Numbered from the stretch's first letter, positions 34,572 through 63,614 are shown. The stretch: 64,000 nt of DNA from a virus (IMGVR_UViG_3300033066_001295:96001-160000); one strand, 5' to 3'. Translations and numbers: made by a program. Notes: generated by a model from the sequence alone, not told the origin.

Positions 34572-36077
34572 TTAGAGTTCGACTGCCTCGATCTCCTTGA
34601 GAAGAGCCTTGCTGTCCACCTCTGAGTTCTTCAGGATGCTGAAGATGTTAGGAGAGAAACCAGCAAGTGGCTTGAACCAAGCCTCTGGAAGAGGGTGGGC
34701 TTCATACCCAGCGAGGTTCCAGAGGTACACCAAGGTGCCACACTTGAACCTGCTCTGGTACTCCCTTACTGCATGAACTGGGGCGGTGTAGCCTTCCCAG
34801 TGCATGTTATCAGACAGGATGATGATTCTGCTGTAGGCCTTCTTCAAGATCGGGAAGATCGTGTTGAAGTTGGTGCCACCCATGTCGCTCTTCAACAGAC
34901 GGGCAATCGTGAAGATTGAGTCATCTGGGTTGAGAGAAACATACTCAGCGGCACTACCGAAGCGAACCACGTCACAGTTGAAAGCCTTCACCATGATGGC
35001 AGCGAACACGTCCGCAGCCTCCAAAGCAGAAAGAGACACCTGCTGCTCACCCTTGCTTCCGTCCTTGCCCTTGGCAAAGGCTACGCCGGTTGTCATTGAA
35101 CCAGAGTGGTCCACAACAACGAGGGTTTCGCCTTCGAGTTCAGGGATGTTCTTGCAAGAGATTTCCATGGCCTTGTTCAAAGCCGTCACAATCGTCCTGC
35201 CGTTCTTGTCCGTGGCATCCACGGCCTTTGCGGCGAGCAGGAAGTGATATGGGAACAGCTTCGAGTTGGCAATAGCCTTCTCGTTGGTTAGGAACTCAGC
35301 AAGGGTATCAGCCATGTCAGGAGCTTCCTTGAGGATGTTACGCACGTTGCGAACAGCCGCAAAGTAACCAAGCTTCTTCTCCTTGAGAAGTTCGCGCCAG
35401 TTGTTGGCAAGAGCTTCCACCTTGTCTTCTTCGGACAAGTTTTCAGCCTTGGCAGCCTGACCGGTCTGGGTCCTCTTGACTTCCCACGTTTCAGCAGGAG
35501 CAAGCGTACCCTTCACAAGGGCTGACAATGGAGCACTAGCTGGTGGGTGAAGCAGGTTCACTGCATCAATCAGCTTGAAGTCACCGTTACCCTTGTACTT
35601 GCTGATCTGGTAGTTGTCGAAGCGGGCCAGACGTTCACCGAGACCCTTGCGCATTGCGTTTGTGATGCGCTTCTTACCGAAACGACCAAGAACACAGGAG
35701 GTGATCTCCGTCACGTCATCAGGGCGGTATGCCACCTTGCTGAAGAAGCTCTTTGCCCATGGCTTACCCTGACAAAGCTGTGACACTTCTGCTGCCACGA
35801 GATGACTCGTGGAACGCATGTCAAACTTCATACGGGTGTAAATTGCCGCCTTGGCTGCAAACTCAGGCTTCACCTTGTTCACCAATTCAAGCAGTCTCTT
35901 AGCTGCTTCGTCACCACTCCGGTAAGCCTGATTCTGGAGCTTTGAAGCTGCCAGTAGCTGTACCAGTTCCAGTTCAGGAGAGGACTTGAAGGCCTCGCCA
36001 CCTGCACGGTTTACTGTCTTCTGTGCTTCGAGGGTTGAACCTGAAGCCACTTTTCTGCCTGTTGCGTACTTGCTCAT
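34572..36077 (-). CDS. rsr: Ro60/Rsr TROVE-domain RNA-binding protein with vWA domain
   Basis: VNRAGGEAF, RFDNYQISKY, ETWEV, LGYFAAVRNVRN, MIDAS motif VDHSGSM, GGTNF, ILSDN. Confidence 0.92.
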   Translation of the reverse strand: MSKYATGRKVASGSTLEAQKTVNRAGGEAFKSSPELELVQLLAASKLQNQAYRSGDEAAKRLLELVNKVKPEFAAKAAIYTRMKFDMRSTSHLVAAEVSQLCQGKPWAKSFFSKVAYRPDDVTEITSCVLGRFGKKRITNAMRKGLGERLARFDNYQISKYKGNGDFKLIDAVNLLHPPASAPLSALVKGTLAPAETWEVKRTQTGQAAKAENLSEEDKVEALANNWRELLKEKKLGYFAAVRNVRNILKEAPDMADTLAEFLTNEKAIANSKLFPYHFLLAAKAVDATDKNGRTIVTALNKAMEISCKNIPELEGETLVVVDHSGSMTTGVAFAKGKDGSKGEQQVSLSALEAADVFAAIMVKAFNCDVVRFGSAAEYVSLNPDDSIFTIARLLKSDMGGTNFNTIFPILKKAYSRIIILSDNMHWEGYTAPVHAVREYQSRFKCGTLVYLWNLAGYEAHPLPEAWFKPLAGFSPNIFSILKNSEVDSKALLKEIEAVEL

Positions 36078-42064: not shown

Positions 42065-42486
42065 TGGTGGAGACGAGCGGAGTTGAACCGCTGTGTTTTG
42101 CGCTTTCCCGGTTTGAGGAATTACAAGCTTGTTCACTATTTCGCCTCGAACCGGCTATCCTGATTACCTCACAGGAATTGGTTTCTGGTTGCTTGCCTGC
42201 ATCCCTCTACCAGCAATTGGGATTCTGTATTGAGATCAAAGGGGCAGCGTCAGGACAGGACAGCCACTACTACCCCTCCTCGGTTAGACCAATACTGCTT
42301 CATCAGCAGTAGCGAACTTTGCGAGCGTTGCGTCAGCGTTGTCCTTGATGGACTCAGCCTCAGCAATGAGAGCTTCGATGTTATCGTTAGCGTTTATGTT
42401 TTGGGTGGACTTGATAACGGAGGAGTTTTCCCAACTCCGGCTTGCCTCAAACAAAGAACACACAAAGTCGAAACCAGTACGTCCCC
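42065..42486 (-). ncRNA. ssrA: tmRNA
   Basis: 5' GGGGACGTACTGGTTTCGAC; 3' CAGCGGTTCAACTCCGCTCGTCTCCACCA with a G3:U pair; tag frame 42391-42284 begins ANDN. Confidence 0.93.
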
Positions 42487-52491: not shown

Positions 52492-52581
52492 TGGTCACCT
52501 AGCTCAGATTTCCACTGAGACGAAGATTTTACCTCCGGGACGTTTTAAGTGTCCTGCGTCTGGTTGTTCCGCCACTAGGTG
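52492..52581 (-). tRNA. tRNA-Leu(TAA)
   Basis: acceptor CACCTAG/CTAGGTG-A-CCA, anticodon loop CTTAAAA, long variable arm. Confidence 0.8.
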
Positions 52582-52646
52582 TTGATGATTTATCCGGTAG
52601 GGGTCTGCGATGACCCCACCTATCTTTATCTTATACGTGTCACCTG

Positions 52647-53063
52647 TCATGTGATGTCTTTAATGAAAGGGAAGGAGAACTTGTCAAACACAACTGGCAT
52701 GTGCAGTTTGTCCTCCATTTTAGGAAGCACCTCAAGTTCTTCTGGTGTTATAGCCCTCCAGCACTGCTGCCCATGGTCCCACACTCTTTTCCAAAAATAA
52801 GAAGTTCTGCCAATGTAGCCATCTGGGAGGTTGTCCGTGTCGAATTTGGAATCCCACTCATACACGTCTTTGCTAGGGCTGAAAACATGCCATTGCCTCT
52901 CACCACCCATGCCTCCCCACTTGCCGTCACAGATTGAGTAAGGGTTAGCCATGTCAAGCTCATCTGATTCCTCCTTTGAGAGGAACTTGAACTTGAAGGT
53001 TAGGTCCGTAGGACCGTCCATAGGCTGGACGGTTACAAGGTCATGTGCGCTTAGAGTGCTCAT
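52647..53063 (-). CDS. protein with gp23-like segments
   Basis: N-terminal LSAHDLVTVQPMDGPT; C-terminal FDKFSFPFIK. Confidence 0.6.
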   Translation of the reverse strand: MSTLSAHDLVTVQPMDGPTDLTFKFKFLSKEESDELDMANPYSICDGKWGGMGGERQWHVFSPSKDVYEWDSKFDTDNLPDGYIGRTSYFWKRVWDHGQQCWRAITPEELEVLPKMEDKLHMPVVFDKFSFPFIKDIT

Positions 53064-53696
53064 CTTCCTGCTTCTTGATGTCTTTCTTGGTGGCAATACG
53101 CTCTTTGCTCCAAAACACCTTTTTGAAGTCACGAAGATGTTTCCACCATTGAGGGGGTTTGGTCAACAGTCCTTTCTTTACAGTGGCCATATGATCTTGA
53201 GACGTGGAAATTCATCTGCTGAAGGGGATGGCTTGTAATCAGCCTTCATTTGGTCTTCAGACGGGAAGTAGATCGAACAGGTAGTTGGGTCATATCCGGC
53301 GGCAGGATCTTGATGGCCACCGTGCGCCCCAGTGTCTTCTGCACACCTGATGGAACCTTATAGGTCACATGAGTGCTCATTCTTAGCTTCTTAGCAATGT
53401 CAGCCCAAGAAACCTTTTGTTCACGAAGAGAGATGATCTGATTGATATAGCGTGATGCTGGTTTTTTCATATCAGAAAACTATGACAGCATGGCTTCAAC
53501 CTGTCAAACATTTTGTTATTCCACCAAGCGGTAACTCTCCAAACTGCGAAGATTGATAAAACAGAGTCTCCAAAGAATTTGGAATACCTCATCATCTGGG
53601 GCTTCTTTGGTGATAGCAGTGGCAGCCTGAAGAACAGCCGTCTTGGCCTTCTCAAGCTCTACCTTGGCTTGGGGGGAGTTTGACATGTGCATAGAA

Positions 53697-53770
53697 TGGA
53701 GCCTCTTAACGGATTCGCACCGTTCTATCTGCGCTACGAGGGCAGAACATCGCTTCTATGTTTAAGAGGC
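53697..53770 (-). tRNA. tRNA-Thr(CGT)
   Basis: GCCTCTT/AAGAGGC-T-CCA; loop CTCGTAG. Confidence 0.75.
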
Positions 53771-54264
53771 ATTACTTTTTCTTTTTTGCATAACTGCTCG
53801 CACCGGATGGTGATAGCTGCTTGCAGTTTGCTCTGGGGCGACCGTAAGAATCCCTAGACTTGTCCGGTGTTACAAGCCTTCTACGCTCCTCTTTTGTAAG
53901 GGTAGCACCTTTTCGAGAGTAACTTACTAGCTCATGAATTGATCTCATAGTGTGTCAGGCGTAATACTCACGCCAAATAACTGGTTGTTTTTGACCGTAG
54001 ATCATAGCCATAGCCTGTCGCAAAAGATTCTCACGGTCTGTATCTGACAAGGCATTGCACTCAGCCCTGTTACAACGTGCTATCTCATTCTCTGCTAGCC
54101 TCCTCAGTCTCCTCTGGTGCTTGAACCAAGCAGCCTGAGCAGCCAAAACAGTGAAGTCGATACCTGAGTTGTGGAACCATTCCACAACTTCCTTCCACGT
54201 CATACCCTCTTCCCTGAGAGTTTGAATACGTGGTATGTGATTTGAAGCTAAGTCATATGACATA

Positions 54265-54339
54265 TGGTACGCCCGGTTGGTTCTGCCCCAACTACCAAGG
54301 AATTATGAGTTCCCTGCTCTACTATTGAGCTACAAGCGC
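54265..54339 (-). tRNA. tRNA-Ile2/Met(CAT)
   Basis: GCGCTTG/CGGGCGT-A-CCA; loop CTCATAA. Confidence 0.8.
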
Positions 54340-54343
54340 AAAT

Positions 54344-54468
54344 GCAAAAGGAGAAAATCGGAGAGAGTAATTACCGTGCTGCCGTTACACTAAAGGCTTT
54401 CACCTTTGGGAGTCGAACCCATCCGGTCGATAATCAGTCGAAGTAACTCTGTTCCTCGCTGCCTATGC
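54344..54468 (-). ncRNA. Y RNA (YrlA-like) 1
   Basis: 5' GCAGCGAGGAACAGAGTTACTTC pairs with the 3' end; internal permuted tRNA module (T arm GGGTTCGACTCCC, GAAA-capped stem, D arm GTGTAACGGCAGCAC). Confidence 0.75.
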
Positions 54469-54545
54469 TGGTCAGGTTAATGGGATTCGCACCCATGGTC
54501 TCTTCGTCCCGAACGAAGCGTGATACTAGGCTTCACTATAACCTG
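54469..54545 (-). tRNA. tRNA-Pro(CGG)
   Basis: CAGGTTA/TAACCTG-A-CCA; CTTCG-TTCGGGA-CGAAG. Confidence 0.85.
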
Positions 54546-54552
54546 TTAAATA

Positions 54553-54706
54553 TGTCAGAGAAAATTGAAGAGCGGTATTTTTCGGTGCTCTACTATTAAG
54601 CTATAGTGGAATTGAAATCTCGATCATGAGACTTCAATTCCACCAAGGGGAATTGCACACCCTACACCCGTCTTGAATGAAGTAACGCTTTTTCTCGCTG
54701 CTGACA
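54553..54706 (-). ncRNA. Y RNA (YrlA-like) 2
   Basis: 5' TGTCAGCAGCGAGAAAAAGCGTTACTTC / 3' CGCTCTTCAATTTTCTCTGACA; T-arm-like, long hairpin, D arm GCTTAATAGTAGAGC. Confidence 0.75.
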
Positions 54707-54707
54707 C

Positions 54708-54784
54708 TGGCGTTCCTGAGAGGAATTGCACCCCCATCTTTCGCGTTCGATGCGCGAAGCTCTAGTCTGTTAAGCTACAGGAAC
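54708..54784 (-). tRNA. tRNA-Arg(TCG)
   Basis: GTTCCTG/CAGGAAC-G-CCA; TCGCG-CATCGAA-CGCGA (A33). Confidence 0.75.
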
Positions 54785-54785
54785 A

Positions 54786-55241
54786 TTAACTTTCACCGAC
54801 GTATGTCACGCCACAGGCGTTACACACATATTTTGAAGAATCGCCATTCGGTGGATGACGAAAAACATTGCAGCCACAGTCACACCGGAATGACTGTCCG
54901 CCAGAAAGCCTCACCATTCTGTCCACGTCAGGATCAGCCCAGTTGGCTACCTTCTCAGGCACAGAACGCTGGGTTCTCAGTTCAAACAAGCCTTTGAGGT
55001 CAGACTCCTGTTCCATGATCAATCGAGCATAAAAGGCACGATGGTTATTGCAGAGTTTGAAGTCAGGATCAGTTGTGCTGAGTCCTACCTCCCATCTAAC
55101 AAGCTCATAGATCATGCTAATACCAAGCTTGGTCTTGCCACCCTTGGCTTTCACCCAGTCACGGGCAAAACCAACAAGAAGCTCATAGACCTTTGGGTTC
55201 TCTTTGTGGAACTTCTGGAACTCTTTTTCAAGCTTTGACAT
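54786..55241 (-). CDS. conserved phage hypothetical protein
   Basis: FHKENPKVY...FKLCNNHRAFYARL; C-terminal FRCDCGCNVF...CNACG. Confidence 0.65.
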   Translation of the reverse strand: MSKLEKEFQKFHKENPKVYELLVGFARDWVKAKGGKTKLGISMIYELVRWEVGLSTTDPDFKLCNNHRAFYARLIMEQESDLKGLFELRTQRSVPEKVANWADPDVDRMVRLSGGQSFRCDCGCNVFRHPPNGDSSKYVCNACGVTYVGES

Positions 55242-55312
55242 TAGTTGACTATAACTAATACAAAACTCCTGTCAAATTGTTTTGAAAAGTCCGTTGAGTG
55301 TATGTATTTCTT

Positions 55313-55864
55313 ATGGAAGACTTAACGGGAAACATCTTCGGACTACTTACTGTTATAGGTCCAGCGAGCAAAGCTAACAAACAACGTGGCAGACGTTGGG
55401 AATGCCGCTGCTTGTGTGGTAAGCTAACCTCTGTACAAGGCTACAACCTAAAAAGAGGAAACACAAAATCGTGTGGATGTTTAGTCGGTGAAAAAATGAG
55501 GGGAAAATGTAACCCAAGATTCAAAGGTTATGAGGAAATCAGTGGGTCAAAATTATATGAGTACAAGAAAAATGCAAAACTTAGGGGGTTAAATTTTGAA
55601 GTCACTATTCAAGACCTTTGGGAGCAATTTCTAGCACAAAATCGAAAGTGTGCTCTAACTGGAGTAGAACTCACATTTCAAAAAACCATTTTAGACCGAG
55701 CATCAACAGCCTCTTTAGACAGAGTTGACAGCACACTAGGGTACACTAAAGGCAATATTCAATGGCTTCACAAAGATGTTAATTATATGAAATCAGACCT
55801 TCCACAGGAAGTATTCATACAAATCTGTAAACAAGTAGCATCTCAGCACGAAGGAAAACCATGA
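55313..55864 (+). CDS. HNH homing endonuclease inserted in the tRNA region
   Basis: DLTGNIFGLLTV, WECRCLCG, KSCGC, KCALTG, SLDRVDSTLGY..NIQWLHKDVNYMK; AT-rich and on the opposite strand. Confidence 0.85.
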   Translation: MEDLTGNIFGLLTVIGPASKANKQRGRRWECRCLCGKLTSVQGYNLKRGNTKSCGCLVGEKMRGKCNPRFKGYEEISGSKLYEYKKNAKLRGLNFEVTIQDLWEQFLAQNRKCALTGVELTFQKTILDRASTASLDRVDSTLGYTKGNIQWLHKDVNYMKSDLPQEVFIQICKQVASQHEGKP

Positions 55865-55960
55865 GGGGAGGGAGCCACTTTCACATCCTGTAGCTCCAAC
55901 CCATGTGCAGGCCGACAACGGCAATTCGCTGCTCCCCCCACTCATGGTTCAAAAAAAGTG

Positions 55961-56162
55961 TTTCCCATGCCAATGATTTTACGGCGGGTCTGGTTACCCG
56001 CTTTCACCTTCACGTCATTACCTCTTTCAGGCGGATTGTGACTGGCCTAGTCACTCTCTGACGGAGACAACCTCTCATAGGATTTGATAGGTATATGGGG
56101 GTGAAGCGCATCAATCAAACGAAGGGTACATTGCTGTCCCTAATTCGTCACTGACTGGGAAA
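55961..56162 (-). ncRNA. unassigned structured RNA
   Basis: no ORF; TTTCCCA/TGGGAAA closing stem and internal hairpins (GTGACTAGGCCAGTCAC, GCGGGT..ACCCGC). Confidence 0.5.
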
Positions 56163-56163
56163 T

Positions 56164-56286
56164 TGGTCGAACAGGAGGATTTTCACCACCGTCTCTGAGG
56201 AGCTATTAGAGCCAACCTTTTTGCACTCATTGCTTGTTGGTCATCTGTCTAGCCGTCTCCATCTCGCGTATGGGCACGCTGTTCGA
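56164..56286 (-). ncRNA. tRNA-like RNA with enlarged core and CCA end
   Basis: TCGAACAG/CTGTTCGA-CCA; T-arm-like GGTGG-TGAAAAT-CCTCC; no normal anticodon arm. Confidence 0.55.
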
Positions 56287-57770
56287 TAAAAGGAGTGTAT
56301 ATCACTCCGAGAAAATTGTCAACCACTACTTTGTGGTAGGCTCTGGCTGAGGTTTTGCCTTCAACATATCAGTCAAGAAGCTGAGAGTCTTGTCATGGGC
56401 TTGATCAGCCCCGTAGGAGCGGTTTATCTCAGCCCTGATGTCACCTTTAACTGTCTCTATGTCAGCCTTCATGTTAGAGATAGACGAGGCATAGACAGCA
56501 CTCTCATCAACGAGGTGCTTCACCCTTTCGATGGTAGCAGACTCAGTAGCTTTGGCCACTGCCCAAGATGATATACCATCCTTGAACTGAGTGAAGACAG
56601 CCCATATACCCAGAAAAAGCATTATCTGGTTGTTTGAGATGTTGATCCTCGGCTCCTCAGCAGGCATACCAAATAGGTAGGTGTGTGATGGTATTCCCAA
56701 GTGGAATTGCACCACTTCGAGCACCTTCGGAGAGTGCCATGCCTCTATTACATCATGGGAACTGGTGCTCACGACTGGAGTTGCACCAGCACTGCCACGC
56801 TTCTGAGACGTGTGCCTCCTGCTATTGGGCTACGTGAGCTTAATGATACAAAGCCGCAGATGCTCTGTGACGAGAGTATGGTTCAGGCTCGTCATCACCA
56901 TCATCAAGAAATTCAATCTTTGTCACTGTATGCGAGGTCTCATCAGCTTTCTCAAAGGGCTTGCCCATGTAATAGGCATATGCTTCATCCCGAGAGGCAT
57001 TGATGGTGGTGTAAAGGTAGTCACCGTCATCAAATGTCACCTTCAAAGCGTGTTTTTCAGGTTTGACCTTACCATAACGCAAGTCATCAGGCAACTCAGG
57101 AAGACCTCTTTGCTGCCTAATTTTAACCATTTCATCATGGTCCATACCTAGAGGTGACTCGTTCATCGAGCTAATGAAACTGTTCATGTCAATATCTACC
57201 CTGTTGAAGCAGTAAACTTGATTTTTGACTTCGGTATGTCGTGAGGTGTCTTGTATGAAGCCGACCTGAAACGGTGTGTATAGACGAAGAAGCCGTTGGC
57301 ATCCTTGCCCAAGCTCACCTCTTTCATGATCTCCTTCAGATCATCGGGCTTGGGGACGTTCTCCATTTCAGATTCAAACAGGTTGAGAAAGGTCATGTGT
57401 TGTCAAATACCTATAAGTAGGCTTATACCTGTCAAATAACAAGCTTTGTTGAGTTACCTGACTGAACGCCCTCATTTCAGCAGCCAAAACTTCAGCATCT
57501 TTTTGGCTAAATCCGCCACCATCAAGTGCTCTTAGCTCAAGGATGTAATGACTGTCACGTAAAAAAGTTGAGTACTTGTAAGCTGGATGGACAATGTGAC
57601 AATTAACCCACACAACCACCTTATCAGAATCGGCCAGTCGAACAATATCAACAGGCCTATCTTTGAAAAAGCTTAGTAGTGGGAAAACCTCACCCACCAC
57701 ATTGAACTTGATGCCATTGAACTCGTACATCGGGTAATTACATCAGGTACACCTTGAATGTCAAATATTT

Positions 57771-57845
57771 TGGACGCCAGTAAGGGGATCGCACCCTTCT
57801 AGTTCGTTTTGCAGACGACTCCGCACTCTAGCCCGGTCACTGGCG
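57771..57845 (-). tRNA. tRNA-Cys(GCA)
   Basis: CGCCAGT/ACTGGCG-T-CCA; loop CTGCAAA. Confidence 0.8.
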
Positions 57846-57853
57846 ATTATAAA

Positions 57854-57928
57854 TGGAGCCACCAATGGGATTCGCGCCCATCTCTTCCGAATACCAATCG
57901 GATACATCGCTGTCTATGCTTTGGCGGC
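57854..57928 (-). tRNA. tRNA-Thr(GGT)
   Basis: GCCGCCA/TGGTGGC-T-CCA; TCCGA-TTGGTAT-TCGGA. Confidence 0.85.
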
Positions 57929-58360
57929 AAAAGTTATATTTCTCGGCTCGATGACACCGTCATAGAGCACTGTGCCAACACTACTGAGGGAGGCTTGGTA
58001 GTAGCTTGAGGGTATTGATAGGTACCCATCAACAACCCACTCGGGGTGATTTTCGGTAAGTTTGGCAAACATTTCTTCAACCCTGTCTTCCAACTCTTTG
58101 GAAGTGGTACTGCCATACCCAACAGGTTCACTCAATGATGGCCTGTCAACCCGGAGGAGAGTTGTATCAACTAGGCAGCTAAGAACTACAGGTTCCCCAC
58201 CACCATCTGCTGCTTCAGCATAGTAGTAGGCAAGCTCAAACTTGTCTGATAAGCAAGGATTCTTCAGCCCATGAATTTTGATCGAAGAAACCCACTCGCT
58301 ATTTGTCCCGTGGTACAAGGTTACTGAGCTTTCAAACAGGCTGACAAAACTAGCTGACAT
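57914..58360 (-). CDS. ADP-ribosyltransferase-fold protein (HYE/Tpt1-like)
   Basis: TLYHGT..SIKIHGL..CLSD..LAYYYAE..PVVL...YDGVIEP. Confidence 0.55.
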   Translation of the reverse strand: MSASFVSLFESSVTLYHGTNSEWVSSIKIHGLKNPCLSDKFELAYYYAEAADGGGEPVVLSCLVDTTLLRVDRPSLSEPVGYGSTTSKELEDRVEEMFAKLTENHPEWVVDGYLSIPSSYYQASLSSVGTVLYDGVIEPRNITFAAKA

Positions 58361-58761
58361 ACTGATATGTAGCTATCAAAAAAATTTCAGTGTTCATGTG
58401 GGGAGAGGTCTCTTTCCTACCTTCAAAGTCAGCTTTCGCTTCTCATATCATCACATGAACTCCTGTTTGAGCAGACACCAAGTTAGTCCTTAGACCTTCC
58501 AGTGATGCTCGCCGGATAGCCCCCGGCTCTCAAATTGTTATGGTCTTTTATCACAATGGATCATATAGACCGGTCTCGTTGGAAGAAATCTTTCTTCTGG
58601 GTAGAAGCTGTTACAGACAAAAATGCCATCTGTCCTGCCCATGCTCTTCATTTCAAGCTCTTCCTGTGACCTCACCTCAATCACGATCTCATTCAGTGAG
58701 TAGCCTAGAGCCTTGGCTGTGCCTGTCTTACCAGACCCCATTGAGCCATAAATCAGAGTGA

Positions 58762-59154
58762 TCATTTCTTAGTGCCACTGGCAACGTAGGTTTTCAGTTG
58801 CTCCTTCAGTGCTTCCACAGCCAGATTGTAAATCTCAGGAACATCACGTTTTACAACCTCTGAATTGGCAATCTCAGGGAGAACGTACATCAGAGCTACG
58901 GTCTTACTGGAGGGAAGAACAGAGGATAGTGTGCCCAGCAAAAGGATAGCAGGCAGTGAAAATAGAAGCGACCACTTTGAGATAGAAGAAAATACTGGTT
59001 TGAGTTCCTTATCCACCCCTTTGTCATTGGATAAGAACAAAAACACAACTCCGAGAATGGCTAGGAGCACAGAGGCAAAGACTACCCCTCCACAGGTACT
59101 ACGTACCTCGTCGGCCATCTGCCACAGATATACATTGAATGGTGTTATTGACAT
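58762..59154 (-). CDS. two-TM membrane protein
   Basis: YLWQMAD..TM..TM..LPSSKTVALMYVLP. Confidence 0.65.
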   Translation of the reverse strand: MSITPFNVYLWQMADEVRSTCGGVVFASVLLAILGVVFLFLSNDKGVDKELKPVFSSISKWSLLFSLPAILLLGTLSSVLPSSKTVALMYVLPEIANSEVVKRDVPEIYNLAVEALKEQLKTYVASGTKK

Positions 59155-59195
59155 ACAGAGACTATATCAAGAGTTGACTTGAGGTCAAATGAAAA

Positions 59196-59270
59196 TGGAA
59201 GCCCATGTTGGTAACGCTCCAATCTTACTCCGGGTCAAAGCCGGATGCATTGCTTCTATGCTAATGGGCT
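59196..59270 (-). tRNA. tRNA-Gln(TTG)
   Basis: AGCCCAT/ATGGGCT-T-CCA; TCCGG-CTTTGAC-CCGGA. Confidence 0.85.
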
Positions 59271-59417
59271 AAAAAGGTAAATAGCCGGTTACTATTCCGG
59301 CGTCCCTGAACCCGCTTGCTACAGGCTGGACAGTACTCCTTTTGGGCAAGCAGCCCCCGCAACTTCCCTGCGGACGGTATGGTGAGAAACCCTCTTTGCA
59401 AAAGGAGAGCGATAACA

Positions 59418-59467
59418 CCCATGACACACCTTCGTGTGTTTCGTCCTTTTTGGACTCATCAGATGGG
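59418..59467 (-). ncRNA. type I hammerhead ribozyme
   Basis: CCCAT-CTGATGA-GTCC(AAAAA)GGAC-GAAA-CACAC(GAAG)GTGTG-TC^ATGGG: complete core with all three stems paired. Confidence 0.9.
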
Positions 59468-59469
59468 AG

Positions 59470-59610
59470 TCAAAGAAGTGGAATCACACATTTGCACAGC
59501 ACATGTTGCACCACTCACGCTGGGTAGGACAGTCTTCACATCCAGCAGGCTCACCAAGGGGGACTGACTCTCCCATAGGTGGCACCTCGCGTCTTATTCC
59601 GCCACTTTGA
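59470..59610 (-). ncRNA. unassigned multi-arm tRNA-like RNA
   Basis: TCAAAG/CTTTGA closing stem, Leu-type D-arm GTGGCGGAATAAGACGC, three further hairpins. Confidence 0.5.
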
Positions 59611-59612
59611 TT

Positions 59613-59687
59613 TGGCAGCCATGGTAGGATTTGCACCCACTTAAAACACCTTCAGAGGGTGTCGCATATCTATTCTGCCACATGGCT
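59613..59687 (-). tRNA. tRNA-Gln(CTG)
   Basis: AGCCATG/CATGGCT-G-CCA; ACACC-CTCTGAA-GGTGT. Confidence 0.85.
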
Positions 59688-59706
59688 ATAACACTTTAAC
59701 TCACAC

Positions 59707-60414
59707 TCATGCTGCTGCCCCCATTGCTTCGGCCATGGCGCGGGTTTCTTCGAGGTCAGGAACAACCACAGCCTTGGGCTTGGCACCCCAAGGCAAACCG
59801 AACCGCTTGGCGCAGATGGGGCCGTAGCCAACATCAGTGGAACGCTCATCATCCAAGCCACGGCTGCAAAAGCAGCAACAACCGGTGCGGTGACCATACT
59901 CAGCAGCAACCTTGGCAGGATCAGCGGCGAAGTTCTTCAGGAGGTCAACCACAGTGGAGTCATTGTCACGGCCAGCGAAGAACTCGCCTGACTCAGTGAC
60001 ACGGCCATAATAGGCACCACCGAAAGTAGGGCTGGAAACCATCAAGTTGCCGACATACTTGGACCGCTCACCGGCAAAGGAAATCTTCACCTTGTTGCCG
60101 GAGGCGGCGGAGAGGATGACGGCTGGACGCTTGAGGGCTGAGGCAGCCTTGATGAAGAGGTTCTTGATGCCACTCAAGTCGATCTGGGCGGCTGGAGTTG
60201 GAGCCACCTTGGGCGTTGCCAGCTTGTGAAACCAGAACAAACGGGCTGGAGTGAGGTTGTTTGGGTATGCCTCGACCAGAGACCGGGCGAAGGAGGGGTC
60301 ATTGAACTCCCCATTGGCGATTTTGGCAACCAGAGCTTCCTTTGCTTCTGCATCGGAATTGAACGGGCTGGTGATGACTTCGTTGTTCTTCGGATTGGTA
60401 AGTGTCGTGCTCAT
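59707..60414 (-). CDS. DUF6011-like zinc-binding domain protein
   Basis: YGHRTGCCCFCSRGLDDERSTDVGYGPICAKRFG; leaderless start after the promoter at 60422-60449. Confidence 0.75.
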   Translation of the reverse strand: MSTTLTNPKNNEVITSPFNSDAEAKEALVAKIANGEFNDPSFARSLVEAYPNNLTPARLFWFHKLATPKVAPTPAAQIDLSGIKNLFIKAASALKRPAVILSAASGNKVKISFAGERSKYVGNLMVSSPTFGGAYYGRVTESGEFFAGRDNDSTVVDLLKNFAADPAKVAAEYGHRTGCCCFCSRGLDDERSTDVGYGPICAKRFGLPWGAKPKAVVVPDLEETRAMAEAMGAAA

Positions 60415-60421
60415 GGTGGAC

Positions 60422-60449
60422 ACTATATCGAAAGTCGGTCACTCGTCAA
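60422..60449 (-). promoter_or_regulatory. conserved phage promoter
   Basis: TTGACGAGTGACCGACTTTCGATATAGT, 7 nt before ATG at 60414. Confidence 0.8.
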
Positions 60450-60738
60450 CCAGAAAATGAGTTTTTCAGTTAATTTTTTCTTCACCCCGGTACGCCATGA
60501 GCCATGAAGAGCAAGTTGGCGAGCACATCCGATTGCCACTGATTGAGCTTTTTGGGTGTTTCACATCGTCTTCGGTCAATCGAGGGTCTTCCCACTCCTT
60601 TTCGAGCATTCTCACCCCACACTTCGGACATCTACGCCAGACGTGTATTGAAGGTGGAAAGTCATCTTCGTATTTGGAAAACATTGGTACCAGTGAGTGG
60701 ACCCGCCCCACAGTGCAAAGGCTTATGAAACCCCGCCC

Positions 60739-61149
60739 CTACTTCAGGACACTGGCATTGATTCTTTGCATTCTGGCTGGCGCAGCAGCGAGAACTCTCG
60801 GGCTGATGTGCTTTTCACAGGACTGCCTCAAAGCACCTTTTTGCTCAAGAGAGAGCAAACTCACAGATGGCCCAAGGTGTTTTAGCTGAGGAAAGCTAAT
60901 GTCTTCTGAAAGGACATAACCAGCCTCCCTGAGAACCTCTTCAGCAGGCTTGTAAGGTGTCCCCATTCCAGCAATTCGCCTGATGTCACGGATGACCTCC
61001 CAGTCGATCTCTGTTTGGAGCAAAAGGGCAAGCCACTCAGAGAAGTCGGTGATGATGATCTTCTTGGGAACAGGTGCTACAGCCGGAAGAGGCACGACAG
61101 CAGCTACTGCCACGCCCATGAGTCTCTTGAAAAAATCGCGCCTGTCCAT
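60739..61149 (-). CDS. Tat-signal protein with gp23-like segment
   Basis: MDRRDFFKRL signal; LALLLQTEIDWEVIRDIR. Confidence 0.6.
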   Translation of the reverse strand: MDRRDFFKRLMGVAVAAVVPLPAVAPVPKKIIITDFSEWLALLLQTEIDWEVIRDIRRIAGMGTPYKPAEEVLREAGYVLSEDISFPQLKHLGPSVSLLSLEQKGALRQSCEKHISPRVLAAAPARMQRINASVLK

Positions 61150-61491
61150 TCAAGAATATGTCACAAGAGGTGGACACTTCAAGATTTTACTTTCTGGAAT
61201 TATAACCAGACTAGGGTAGGCAAACTTGTTGAAGTACTCTGGAAGGGCTGCTGCGTACATCTGCCCAAACAGTGAGTCTATAGAGTCCTTCGTCCCGTCC
61301 CCACCTAGATGGGTACAGTGTGTCTTGCCACAAATGGAGCAGGTGTCATATGCAGCACTGGAAGCAAAGTCTGACAACCAGTTACTAACAGCAGAAACAA
61401 CTGCTATGGCTGAAGGAACATCGAGAGTGGACATCTGACTGCCCATCCATCCCCAGAACTCGTCACTTTCTCTTGAAGGAACATCCATAAT

Positions 61492-61568
61492 TGGTCAGGC
61501 TAGAGGGATTCGCACCCTCGGTCTCTTGCACCCCATGCAAGCGTGATACTAAGCTTCACCATAGCCTG
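61492..61568 (-). tRNA. tRNA-Pro(GGG)
   Basis: CAGGCTA/TAGCCTG-A-CCA; CTTGC-ATGGGGT-GCAAG. Confidence 0.85.
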
Positions 61569-61574
61569 TTAAAT

Positions 61575-61704
61575 GATCAAAGGAAACTGAAGAGGGCAAA
61601 ATAGCTTTCGCTACTTCCCCATTAATCAACCATACCAATGTTATGGCTGATGGTGGGGAAGGCTGCCTTTCGGCAACGAAGTAGCCTGTTTCTCGCTGTT
61701 GATC
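61575..61704 (-). ncRNA. Y RNA-like 3 (Ro-binding-type stem with non-tRNA effector module)
   Basis: 5' GATCAACAGCGAGAAACAGGCTACTTC / 3' CCCTCTTCAGTTTCCTTTGATC; two GAAA hairpins flanking a long stem. Confidence 0.65.
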
Positions 61705-61778
61705 TGGTGGAACCGGACGGTAACCCTCCGTCGTTTGAGACATGCCATGCCCCCGTTCTAGTTTTGAACTACGATCCC
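61705..61778 (-). tRNA. tRNA-Ala(GGC)
   Basis: GGGATCG/CGGTTCC-A-CCA with G3:U70; loop ATGGCAT. Confidence 0.85.
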
Positions 61779-62163
61779 ATAAAGTACCCGTTCTGGTGCG
61801 CTTCTTTGAGAGGCGTAACGGGTTTTTGGAGGACGCACTCGGCGTTTAGCCGATTCTCATGAACATGCGCCCATAAATGCAGGCCGGTTTTACCCGGCTG
61901 GTACTTCAAGTAAGAGGGTAGATGCCTCATCCTCTATTTTCGGGCAGCCCCGTCCTTAATGGAGCGTTGTACCTACCCCTCCCCACCGCTTGGTTTAGCT
62001 ACGCCATTCGGTGCCTGTTTACTGTGCGTGCCTAGCACGCTGTCTGCAAAATTTTAGCTTCATCACCCCTCACGTTCTCTTACTCTTGGAGTGACATACC
62101 ACGTTGACAAGCCCCGAATAACGATCCGAACTTATCTAGGCTGGGAATATCTTCCTGAAGCTA

Positions 62164-62256
62164 TGGCGGATAATCGAGGACTTGCACCCCAAGCTCACTT
62201 TCGTGGCTCAATCCGATTTCGAGTCGGCACCGGCTCGCTTGTCCGGTTGATCATCC
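62164..62256 (-). tRNA. tRNA-Ser(CGA)
   Basis: GGATGAT/ATTATCC-G-CCA; loop CTCGAAA; long variable arm. Confidence 0.8.
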
Positions 62257-62468
62257 AAAACTGAATCTGGGTCTTTCCAAGTAATCTCAAGGGTCCCATC
62301 TTCCAAAAACTTGCACTTGCAGTCAACGCTCAGCTTTCGCTGAGCGACTATTGGCATTGACACAATCTCAAGATCAAAGCTTGGAAGGTCTTCAGGTAGG
62401 ACCCCTTCAGGCACTACTGAGACTACAGCCGAAGCGGCAGCAGACTTGAAAAGTGTTCGTCTATCCAT
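62208..62468 (-). CDS. Tat-signal protein with gp23-like segment
   Basis: MDRRTLFKSAAASA signal; LPSFDLEIVSMPIVAQRKL; 3' end overlaps tRNA-Ser. Confidence 0.5.
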   Translation of the reverse strand: MDRRTLFKSAAASAVVSVVPEGVLPEDLPSFDLEIVSMPIVAQRKLSVDCKCKFLEDGTLEITWKDPDSVLDDQPDKRAGADSKSD

Positions 62469-62675
62469 GACGCCTTGCCTCCTCTCTTGTTACCTCTAGG
62501 AGAGGGCCATATCTAACGTGAACAGCCGTGTCAAATTCAGGCTCGTCAGAAATGCATGAAATAGTGAGAGCATCACTGCCATCACCACATGCTGCTACTT
62601 CAGAGCATTCAAATTTACCATTCCAGAATGATATGCTGAGAAACCCCCTATAGGGTTTCATAAATCTGTAATACC

Positions 62676-63116
62676 CTACTGGCATGATTCACAAGGACCA
62701 TCAACTGAACAGGAAGGTTGACCGAGTTTGGTGTCACCAAAGTCGAGGTCATCTTTCTGTGCAACTTCATCTGCTGCCTGCCATATTCTGGCTTTCACCT
62801 CTGTACGAGGCTCTATTTTGAACTCCCCATCAACACGAAGCGTGCGACGATCCTCTGAAATGAAGTTTGGGTCTGACAAGCTCTGCTGAATAGCCTCACA
62901 AAGAATCTCAACAACCTCATCATCAATGCTAAGACCATGACGCTGAAACACGGTATCAACAACGTCATTATTCCAACGAACTTTGATGGTACGGCCATCC
63001 ACAGCAATACCCCTCCTTAGCACGATGTCATCAGGCCCAAGTGGTGCATCTGGGAAGGTGATTGTGTGACCGGGAAATCGCTCCTGAACCTTTACCATAA
63101 AGTCTTGATCAGTCAT
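62676..63116 (-). CDS. protein with gp23-like segment
   Basis: AVDGRTIKVRWNNDVVDTVFQRHGLSIDDEVVEILCEAIQQSL. Confidence 0.6.
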   Translation of the reverse strand: MTDQDFMVKVQERFPGHTITFPDAPLGPDDIVLRRGIAVDGRTIKVRWNNDVVDTVFQRHGLSIDDEVVEILCEAIQQSLSDPNFISEDRRTLRVDGEFKIEPRTEVKARIWQAADEVAQKDDLDFGDTKLGQPSCSVDGPCESCQ

Positions 63117-63138
63117 AACTCAAGCTAGGCTACATTTC

Positions 63139-63230
63139 TGGCGGGTCAAGGAGGACTTGCACCCCAAACCACTTTCGTGGCTCCAATTGCTTTCCAAGCA
63201 ACGCTGACTCGCTTGTTCAGTTCTTGACCC
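63139..63230 (-). tRNA. tRNA-Ser(GGA)
   Basis: GGGTCAA/TTGACCC-G-CCA; loop TTGGAAA; long variable arm. Confidence 0.85.
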
Positions 63231-63234
63231 AAAA

Positions 63235-63309
63235 TGGTGGAGAATAACGGTTCCGCCCCGTTGACTTCGCGTTGCAAGCGCAATGTGTTACTATTAGCAC
63301 CAATCCCCC
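63235..63309 (-). tRNA. tRNA-Ala(TGC)
   Basis: GGGGGAT/ATTCTCC-A-CCA with G3:U70; loop CTTGCAA. Confidence 0.85.
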
Positions 63310-63449
63310 TTAAAGCCGGTTCTCTCACACCGGAAAGTCACACAACTTTCGTCATCGCAAGAAATAGCTCGGTGCCTCCATCGAGGTCGTCACTACAACT
63401 GCTCCGGGACATGTGTCGTCTTTATCTGCATATCTCCCGATCTGCAAAA

Positions 63450-63524
63450 TGGCCGCTTGAACTGGTAACGCTCCAGTCTTCTCTCCTTTTCAGGGAGGCA
63501 CCCATCTATCTAGGTCATCAAGCG
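63450..63524 (-). tRNA. tRNA-Phe(GAA)
   Basis: CGCTTGA/TCAAGCG-G-CCA; loop CTGAAAA. Confidence 0.75.
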
Positions 63525-63540
63525 AAAATGGTGGCTGTAA

Positions 63541-63614
63541 TGGAGGGCCATGTCGGTAACGCTCCGACTTAGTCTGCTTGGAAGGCAGTTGCACTACTTT
63601 TGTGCTAATGACCC
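63541..63614 (-). tRNA. tRNA-Gly(TCC)
   Basis: GGGTCAT/ATGGCCC-T-CCA; loop CTTCCAA. Confidence 0.85.

Follow-up and report, generated by a model that had tools for sequence, protein, structure and literature searches.

Within the virus record IMGVR_UViG_3300033066_001295, a single contig of 207,816 bp (~208 kb), we analysed a stretch of 64,000 nucleotides (bases 96001-160000, hereafter the window) that carries a long array of transfer RNA (tRNA) genes in which the elbow pair 18/55, G18/U55 in canonical tRNAs, reads A18/G55. The contig encodes proteins of a jumbo myophage (T4-type major capsid protein, portal, prohead protease, tail sheath and family A DNA polymerase), and its tRNA island runs on the minus strand from 52492 past the end of the window to window-coordinate 74356. 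All detection methods combined gave 19 tRNA genes for the window and a genome total of 45, all on one strand and within ~22 kb. At least five HNH homing endonuclease genes are interspersed in this same-strand array, as in mobile arrays of the L-array or phage type, and a GIY-YIG endonuclease gene lies elsewhere in the genome.

The gene set was assembled from a relaxed ARAGORN run, a covariance model (R1) trained on 34 tRNAs of this phage and a direct search for the combination of T-arm, acceptor stem and CCA. An initial reading of the window from its sequence only (the sequence-only reading) had listed 16 tRNAs; these genes are real, and the count rises to 19 with Thr(CGU), a weak CAU gene and Ser(CGA) (Table 1). 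We also considered whether that reading had misread an antisense strand, and ruled this out, as the genes lie on the minus strand and had been read correctly. With default settings, ARAGORN found only 7 of the 19 window tRNAs and 22 of the 45 in the genome, and the Rfam tRNA model RF00005 found 7 of the 19 at its gathering threshold; in its sensitive mode, 12 reached the 29-bit gathering score. Standard tools overlooking more than half of these genes means that the tRNA content of phages is systematically under-counted.

The pair G18-Psi55 is held near-invariant in tRNA architecture and serves as a handle for TruB, TrmA and TrmH. In the phage island, G55 is present in all 19 window genes and none of them has a TTC T-loop or a GG at positions 18-19, as the sequence-only reading had stated for its 16; the conserved G18 and U54-U55 of RF00005 are absent from the window set. 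The T-loop strings given in that reading are correct; in the Rfam alignments, the phage has GGGUGCGAAUCCC against the consensus GGUUCgAaUCC and AAUAGUA against AaUGGUA. A18-G19 (or A18-C19) is readable in every window gene except the weak CAU gene, and genome-wide G55 is found in 44 of the 45 tRNAs, with a readable A18 in 43 of these 44. At positions 54-58, N-G-C-R-N takes the place of the usual U-U-C-R-A, and in the D-loop G18-G19 is replaced by A18-G19.

The tertiary contacts around this pair are changed in a matched fashion. The C19/G56 swaps noticed initially in Ala(GGC) (AAAACTA / AGGGTTA) and Leu(UAA) (TGGAAAT) are real, and two further 19-56 swaps occur beyond the window, one in a second Glu(UUC) (A18-C19 with UGGGACU) and one in a CAU tRNA (A56 with an apparent U19). 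Throughout the genome, the 19-56 pair is mostly G19-C56, with three C19-G56 and one apparent U19-A56, so that it stays Watson-Crick. The 54-58 pair is exchanged in the same matched way: among the 44 G55 tRNAs, 29 T-loops are of the UGNRA type, one is CGCGA, nine have A54 with U58 (AGCGU, AGCAU, AGGGU), one is AGCAA and four have G54 with G58 (GGCAG, GGCGG). Position 54 is U in 30, A in 10, G in 4 and C in 1 of the 45 tRNAs, and since it varies so freely, TrmA would impose no constraint on it.

Table 1. Genes and other features of the tRNA island and of the rest of the genome. Positions are window coordinates unless marked L002, L004 or L005; L002 is the stretch beyond the window end (L002:110-266 is window-coordinate 64110-64266).
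Feature	Position	Strand	D-loop	T-loop	Remarks
tRNA-Leu(UAA)	52492-52581	-	AACAACCAG (A18-C19)	UGGAAAU (G55, G56)	long variable arm; 19-56 swap
tRNA-Thr(CGU)	53697-53770	-	AGAAGCG	UGCGAAU	R1, 48 bits
tRNA-Met or Ile2 (CAU)	54265-54339	-	AAUAGUA	GGCAGAA	G54/G58 type; Rfam 47.4 bits
tRNA-Pro(CGG)	54469-54545	-	AGCCUAGUA	UGCGAAU	
tRNA-Arg(UCG)	54708-54784	-	AACAGACUA (A18 G19 A20)	UGCAAUU	A33 in anticodon loop (CAUCGAA)
tRNA-Arg(CCG)	56689-56762	-	AAUAGAG	UGCAAUU	
tRNA-Leu(CAG)	56763-56839	-	AAUAGCAGG	UGCAACU	short 5-nt variable region
tRNA-Cys(GCA)	57771-57845	-	GCUAGAGU	UGCGAUC	U73
tRNA-Thr(GGU)	57854-57928	-	AGACAGCG	CGCGAAU	CGNRA type
tRNA-Gln(UUG)	59196-59270	-	AGAAGCA	AGCGUUA	A54/U58 type
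tRNA-Gln(CUG)	59613-59687	-	AAUAGAU	UGCAAAU	
weak CAU tRNA or tRNA-like gene	60685-60756	-		GGCGGGU	short D-arm; CCA end; R1 24.2 bits; least certain member
tRNA-Pro(GGG)	61492-61568	-	AGCUUAGUA	UGCGAAU	
tRNA-Ala(GGC)	61705-61778	-	AAAACUA (A18-C19)	AGGGUUA (G55-G56)	G3:U70; 19-56 swap
tRNA-Ser(CGA)	62164-62256	-	ACAAGCGAG	UGCAAGU	long variable arm; missed by ARAGORN, Rfam and R1; stem-plus-CCA scan, minimum-free-energy cloverleaf
tRNA-Ser(GGA)	63139-63230	-		UGCAAGU	long variable arm
tRNA-Ala(UGC)	63235-63309	-	UAAUAGUA	GGCGGAA	G3:U70
tRNA-Phe(GAA)	63450-63524	-	AGAUAGAU	AGCGUUA	
tRNA-Gly(UCC)	63541-63614	-	AAAAGUA	AGCGUUA	U73
tRNA-Leu(AAG)	70838-70914 (L002:6838-6914)	-			variable region only 5 nt
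tRNA-Ile(GAU)	L002:10281-10356				C33 in anticodon loop (CCGAUAA)
tRNA-Ser(UGA)	73914-74007 (L002:13914-14007)	-		TTCGATT	canonical T-loop
tRNA-like gene	L004:7613-7688 (genome 27613-27688)	+	AATGGCA	TTCGATT	CCA end; irregular anticodon arm
transfer-messenger RNA (tmRNA)	42065-42486	-		GGTTCAACTCC	keeps TTC
Y-RNA-like, tRNA-shaped element	64110-64266 (L002:110-266)	-	GG	TTCGATT	canonical elbow
Ro60 (TROVE) gene	34572-36077	-			
HNH-type homing endonuclease gene	55298-55861	+			inside island; PHROG 3322 and 374
HNH gene	L002:2549-3010	+			
HNH gene	L002:4382-4894	+			
HNH gene	L002:4986-5663	+			
HNH gene	L002:8310-8822	-			
abiF RNA motif (RF03085)	61786-61822	-			37.9 bits (gathering score 37 bits)
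abiF RNA motif, second copy	L002:4054-4091	-			26.7 bits, sub-threshold
hammerhead type I ribozyme match	59417-59468	-			31.1 bits, below the 34-bit gathering score
2H phosphoesterase gene (LigT/Acb1-like)	L005:8144-8680	-			

The sole canonical T-loop among the 45 tRNAs belongs to tRNA-Ser(UGA), which has a 6-bp D-stem with a small loop without GG, scores 34 bits as a tRNA-Sec against a threshold of 47, and reads UCA, the Ser codon that the phage uses most. Outside the tRNAs, the tmRNA and the Y-RNA-like element of the phage both keep TTC, as had been noticed from the start, and the latter combines it with a canonical GG. Since these two RNAs are unaffected, the elbow change is specific to tRNAs and is not a compositional quirk or the product of a genome-wide mutational bias. 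The Y-RNA-like element has large insertions in its anticodon and variable regions, lacks CCA and is followed by a T-run; it is probably the partner of the phage Ro60 protein. A further tRNA-like gene with a canonical elbow stands alone, far from the island and on the opposite strand.

Judged from their sequences, the A18/G55 genes look functional and evidently selected. All 45 tRNAs have an encoded CCA, acceptor stems are 7/7 paired (6/7 in one gene), and T stems are mostly 5/5 paired (3-4/5 in five genes), within the ordinary cloverleaf of RF00005 (7-bp acceptor stem, 3-4-bp D stem, 5-bp anticodon and T stems, and 7-nt anticodon and T loops). In a model-based alignment, 96.6% of the stem cells are paired, compared with 54% after shuffling and ~40% when partners were slid, and 384 double-sided changes were counted. 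The 3' ends and the marks read by synthetases are in place as well: G3:U70 in both tRNA-Ala, an encoded G-1 opposite C73 in tRNA-His, U73 in tRNA-Gly and tRNA-Cys, and long variable arms in the Ser, Tyr and two of the Leu tRNAs. In all five Arg tRNAs, A20, a further mark of this kind, directly follows A18-G19, which fixes the numbering register of the D-loop. The set comprises 41 different anticodons for all 20 amino acids and serves 58 of the 61 sense codons, or 95.8% of the codon usage of the phage, leaving uncovered only AUA, for which one of the four CAU tRNAs is the probable reader, and Ser AGY (2.9% of codons). These intact stems and encoded ends, together with the compensated 19-56 and 54-58 pairs and the TTC kept by the tmRNA and the Y-RNA-like element, bear out the initial view that selection and not decay shaped the elbow.

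The same view had called the set orthogonal, which does not fit the genes: the identity elements are host-type, and a Pfam search of 301 open reading frames (ORFs) found no synthetase, nor any CCA-adding enzyme, TruB, TrmA, TrmH, RtcB or T4 RNA ligase. Since the phage keeps host-type identity elements and has no synthetase among these ORFs, host enzymes would have to charge its tRNAs.

The sequence-only reading had proposed looking for covariation at 18/55 and 19/56 in related phages, and we carried this out on unrelated viral contigs. Using an exact 15-mer from the AGCGTTA T-arm, we located 117 loci in viral contigs, which are unrelated to the phage beyond tRNA-sized matches; 80 of them were fetched, and R1 found 353 tRNAs there. 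The raw number of 15-mer matches is near chance, and in at least 31 of the 80 fetched loci the match lies inside a tRNA. After deduplication, the parsed 18/55 states were G/U in 132 tRNAs, A/G in 73, G/G in one and A/U in none, apart from a few ambiguous 'AGG' loops. Positions 18 and 55 thus covary in 205 of 206 cases (Fisher p ~1e-55, a value that ignores relatedness between the sequences), which argues for strong selection on the pair. Compensated 19-56 swaps were also found (A19-U56, U19-A56 and C19-G56), and they vary independently of 18-55, occurring in both elbow classes. A third class of viral tRNAs has A54-U55...U58 together with G18, which shows the 54-58 swap to be separable too. The A18/G55 elbow occurs with nearly every anticodon in these contigs; both elbow classes share a contig in 24 of 37 loci and six loci have G55 only, so that the near-pure set of the phage described here (44 of 45) is an extreme case.

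A cultured jumbo phage from sewage whose host is known, vB_OspM_OC (MT028491; host Ochrobactrum sp. POC9), has one G55 tRNA, a tRNA-Ala(UGC) at L231:12001-12073 with T-loop GGCGGAA and D-loop AAATAGGTA, and three tRNAs with U56 and the matching A19, all among otherwise canonical tRNAs. Experiments on the elbow could start from this phage.

Contrary to the idea of an exclusively viral design, the elbow also occurs outside phages. When bacterial genomes were scanned with a 17-mer, 46 matches were obtained, about the chance level, and only four of them lie in tRNAs: those of three Pelagibacteraceae assemblies and one in a Chloroflexota tRNA array. We then listed all tRNAs of these three SAR11 genomes (G002-G004), whose assemblies are incomplete, so that 'only' here means only detected. 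The only tRNA-Phe(GAA) detected in G003 and in G004 (AGUAGUA / UGCGAUU; loci L181 and L182) is of the A18/G55 type, and so is tRNA-Val(GAC) (AAAAGUA / AGCGUUA; loci L183, L186 and L187) in all three genomes. Their positions are scattered over the chromosome, and 20-27 otherwise canonical tRNAs accompany them. Since the only tRNA-Phe detected in two SAR11 genomes has this elbow, it is probably compatible with the standard RNase P, synthetases, EF-Tu and ribosomes of bacteria.

A structural precedent for such a pair comes from RNAs other than tRNA. In a survey of flavin mononucleotide (FMN) and cobalamin riboswitches combined with a genetic screen, non-tRNA T-loops were found to follow YGNRA (88.7% UGNRA and 10.9% CGNRA), with a near-invariant adenosine that is inserted between bases 4 and 5 of the loop and held by two hydrogen bonds to the sugar edge of the position-2 G; tRNA was described as the exception, with U at position 2, and a GGAAG T-loop of ribosomal RNA (rRNA) was named (10.1101/2022.12.26.521914). 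Mapped onto tRNA, position 2 of the T-loop would be nucleotide 55 and the intercalating base nucleotide 18, so that A18 would lie between bases 57 and 58, hydrogen-bonded to the sugar edge of G55 like the riboswitch adenosine. The Y-G-N-R-A consensus is followed by 30 of the 45 phage tRNAs (29 UGNRA and one CGNRA; 12 of the 19 in the window), whose U/C54-G55-N56-R57-A58 with A18 resembles the riboswitch and rRNA module down to a counterpart for CGCGA, and the phage GGNRG (GGCRG) loops resemble the rRNA GGAAG T-loop. The module itself is undescribed in tRNAs. The remaining 14 loops with G55 (AGNRU, AGCAA and GGNRG) lie outside the YGNRA consensus, including the AGNRU form found in nine tRNAs, and the equivalence in three dimensions would have to hold by analogy. 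By this analogy, it is plausible that the phage tRNAs fold with the mainstream T-loop solution of riboswitches. The matched changes at 19-56 and 54-58 would keep both pairs, preserving the L-shape and the flat stacking face, and the machinery that recognises a tRNA by its shape (RNase P, 3' trimming, EF-Tu and the ribosome) should still work, as should the host synthetases.

Why such an elbow would be kept in nearly a whole set may be explained by nucleases that cut the T-loop. CbCash, a CRISPR-associated Schlafen nuclease, broadly cuts T-loops 5' of U55 at a UUC motif, and a single substitution of U54 or U55 abolishes cleavage (PMC13462974), and CdiA-CT E479 cleaves between the conserved T and Psi (PMC9086364). 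The A18/G55 design removes the U54-U55 dinucleotide that both need, so the phage tRNAs should resist nucleases requiring it. On balance, we favour the reading in which the genes encode tRNAs that function in translation with an alternative elbow and are kept because they form a nearly self-sufficient pool immune to T-loop-cutting nucleases of defence or competition, the reason for keeping them being one that we infer. As a side benefit, the pool would be independent of host T-loop modification, since G55 tRNAs cannot be TruB substrates and those without U54 cannot be TrmA substrates. The genes would move as cassettes, the island being rich in homing endonucleases. The escape from an elbow-reading host nuclease, which had been suggested initially, gains plausibility from the site requirements of CbCash and CdiA-CT E479.

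Several points weigh against this preference for nuclease immunity. The function of the tRNAs is predicted from their genes, the A18-G55 geometry is borrowed from riboswitch structures and not from a tRNA, and a T-loop nuclease in the host is a supposition. Apparently essential chromosomal tRNAs of SAR11 share the elbow, which shows that the design is not tied to phage counter-defence. Canonical and A18/G55 tRNAs are mixed in 24 of the 37 viral loci, which would be odd if the canonical ones were destroyed, and in this phage the one tRNA with a canonical T-loop serves the most-used Ser codon.

We regard as rather unlikely an explanation that does without any nuclease, in which A18-G55 (UGNRA with the inserted A) would fold without m5U54, Psi55, Gm18 or the chaperone step of TruB and TrmA, so that phage tRNAs flooding the cell late in infection would not be limited by host modification. 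It is in line with the free variation at position 54 and with G55 not being a TruB substrate, and UGNRA with A was the best-performing T-loop in the riboswitch screens (10.1101/2022.12.26.521914). Moreover, the non-proteogenic tRNAGly of S. aureus, which lack G18-G19 and U55, are hypomodified yet stable and charged (PMC13443448), and housekeeping SAR11 tRNAs with A18/G55 suit a structural, non-defence reason. However, many phage tRNAs are canonical and evidently functional, frequently within the same arrays, and nothing suggests that modification is limiting. The conversion of nearly the whole set in this phage would also go unexplained. About equally doubtful is a bolder proposal in which the elbow is a self/non-self mark, the island being a mobile parallel tRNA lineage that sustains phage translation while canonical U54-U55 tRNAs are destroyed by a Schlafen/Cash-type abortive-infection nuclease of the host or by an unrecognised shut-off nuclease of the phage. 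If true, this would place counter-defence at the tertiary architecture of the tRNA and not at the anticodon loop.

Less probable still is a neutral founder effect, in which an equally good A18/G55 elbow arose once and hitch-hikes in cassettes driven by homing endonucleases, its dominance here reflecting ancestry. The endonucleases interspersed in the island and shared with other islands would fit this, as would the occurrence of the elbow with nearly every anticodon in unrelated contigs and in cellular genomes. The strict covariation, with no A/U and a single G/G intermediate among 206, speaks against it, even if it leaves room for neutrality between the two states themselves, and a near-pure set is unusual when 24 of 37 loci are mixed.

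It appears improbable, to a slightly greater degree, that the phage itself cuts canonical host tRNAs at U54-U55 to shut off its host while its own A18/G55 set takes over. A near-complete set covering 58 of 61 codons and 20 amino acids, with only one canonical tRNA in 45, is what wholesale replacement would need, and as most ORFs have no recognisable family, a nuclease among them could go unrecognised. The sequence-only reading had offered such an enzyme as an alternative, and none was recognisable: among the 301 ORFs, Pfam detected no Schlafen, PD-(D/E)XK tRNase, PIN, HEPN or colicin-like domain, and only a 2H phosphoesterase. In addition, the tmRNA, the Y-RNA-like element and tRNA-Ser(UGA) of the phage keep TTC and would be cut too, and the Ser AGY codons without a phage tRNA mean that host tRNA-Ser(GCU) is still needed. 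That the genes are not translation tRNAs at all (decoys, primers, Ro60/Y-RNA-related substrates or decaying pseudogenes) is scarcely credible, for although ARAGORN by default and Rfam at threshold each miss 12 of the 19, Ro60 and a Y-RNA-like element are encoded nearby and the S. aureus tRNAs without G18-G19 and U55 are non-proteogenic (PMC13443448), the genes have perfect stems, encoded CCA, identity elements, 20 amino acids with sensible wobble and compensated tertiary pairs.

Full-text literature searches returned no description of A18-G55 tRNAs or of G55 phage tRNAs. The large arrays known from jumbo and T4-like phages, and the L-arrays of bacteria (Santamaria-Gomez et al., PMC8421152), likewise have dozens of co-oriented tRNAs with HNH or GIY-YIG genes, are mobile and cover most codons, but their elbows are canonical or go without comment, PMC8421152 being silent on the T-loop, G18 and U55, whereas here G55 is found in 44 of 45 tRNAs. 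Within tRNA biology, the nearest precedent is the staphylococcal non-proteogenic tRNAGly NP1-3 (PMC13443448), natural, charged and hypomodified tRNAs without G18-G19 and U55; unlike these three Gly(UCC) species, which weak EF-Tu determinants exclude from translation and which serve cell-wall synthesis, the phage set keeps G19 and spans 41 anticodons and 20 amino acids. The proposed logic, a recognition site that differs from that of the host, is shared with phage tRNAs that evade defence through anticodon-loop variants (PMC10264068) or, for T5 tRNALys, against PARIS (PMC11464382); those cases concern the anticodon arm of a few tRNAs, whereas here the elbow of a whole set is altered together with a compensating D-loop change, and resistance is proposed only.

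A18-G55 thus seems to be a second, functional way of building the tRNA elbow. A complete and evidently selected set, of which the window is one of the purest examples, would represent a second natural solution that recurs in phages not related to one another and in SAR11 tRNAs that seem essential, and that matches the riboswitch-type T-loop, which raises the question of why cells settled on U55/G18. It may also offer phages a route to resist the newly described T-loop-cutting Schlafen nucleases, and such elbows might serve synthetic biology as modification-independent or nuclease-resistant tRNA scaffolds.

The way in which these genes may move is indicated by their neighbours. Since homologues of the island HNH genes, including the one at 55298, and of the GIY-YIG endonuclease adjoin tRNA arrays on unrelated viral contigs, the island fits a cassette-like spread of tRNA genes of the kind known for T4 SegB and for the L-arrays of bacteria (PMC8421152).

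One study has activated-sludge runs with near-identical phage sequence, at word shares of 0.58-0.90, and river metagenomes from other studies contain it at lower word shares; no RNA data set was listed among those containing the stretch. An island protein searched against viral contigs gave no relative; the major capsid protein gave one 65-kb fragment (66% identity), in which no tRNA was found, and a megablast search against GenBank phages returned only a 39-nt tRNA match. Among 40 of the 189 microdiversity differences, those that were listed, one falls in a tRNA gene (52522, in the variable arm of Leu-UAA), with ~5 expected by length; this hints at purifying selection, and as the listed differences are a biased subset, we do not rely on it.

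Some individual tRNAs have features of their own. Short-arm Leu tRNAs are unusual in bacterial systems, and here tRNA-Leu(CAG) and tRNA-Leu(AAG), with their 5-nt variable regions, have the Leu-type D-loop AAYAGCAGG that also occurs in the long-arm tRNA-Leu(UAG). U33 is missing in two tRNAs, Arg(UCG) and Ile(GAU), and its loss may be a change at the site cut by anticodon nucleases. Directly 5' of tRNA-Ala(GGC) lies an abiF RNA motif, and a second, sub-threshold copy lies between tRNA-Arg(GCG) and a tRNA-Met; as abiF RNA is linked to an abortive-infection system, the phage copy might act as a decoy, or imitate an antitoxin, once freed from the tRNA precursor. The hammerhead match is located between the two tRNA-Gln genes. 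Elsewhere, the structural and replication half of the genome (1-69 kb) encodes an adenylosuccinate synthetase family protein (Pfam E 5e-55), a NADAR domain protein and a protein with a protein kinase domain, and homologues of the 2H phosphoesterase adjoin tRNA arrays in other viral contigs.

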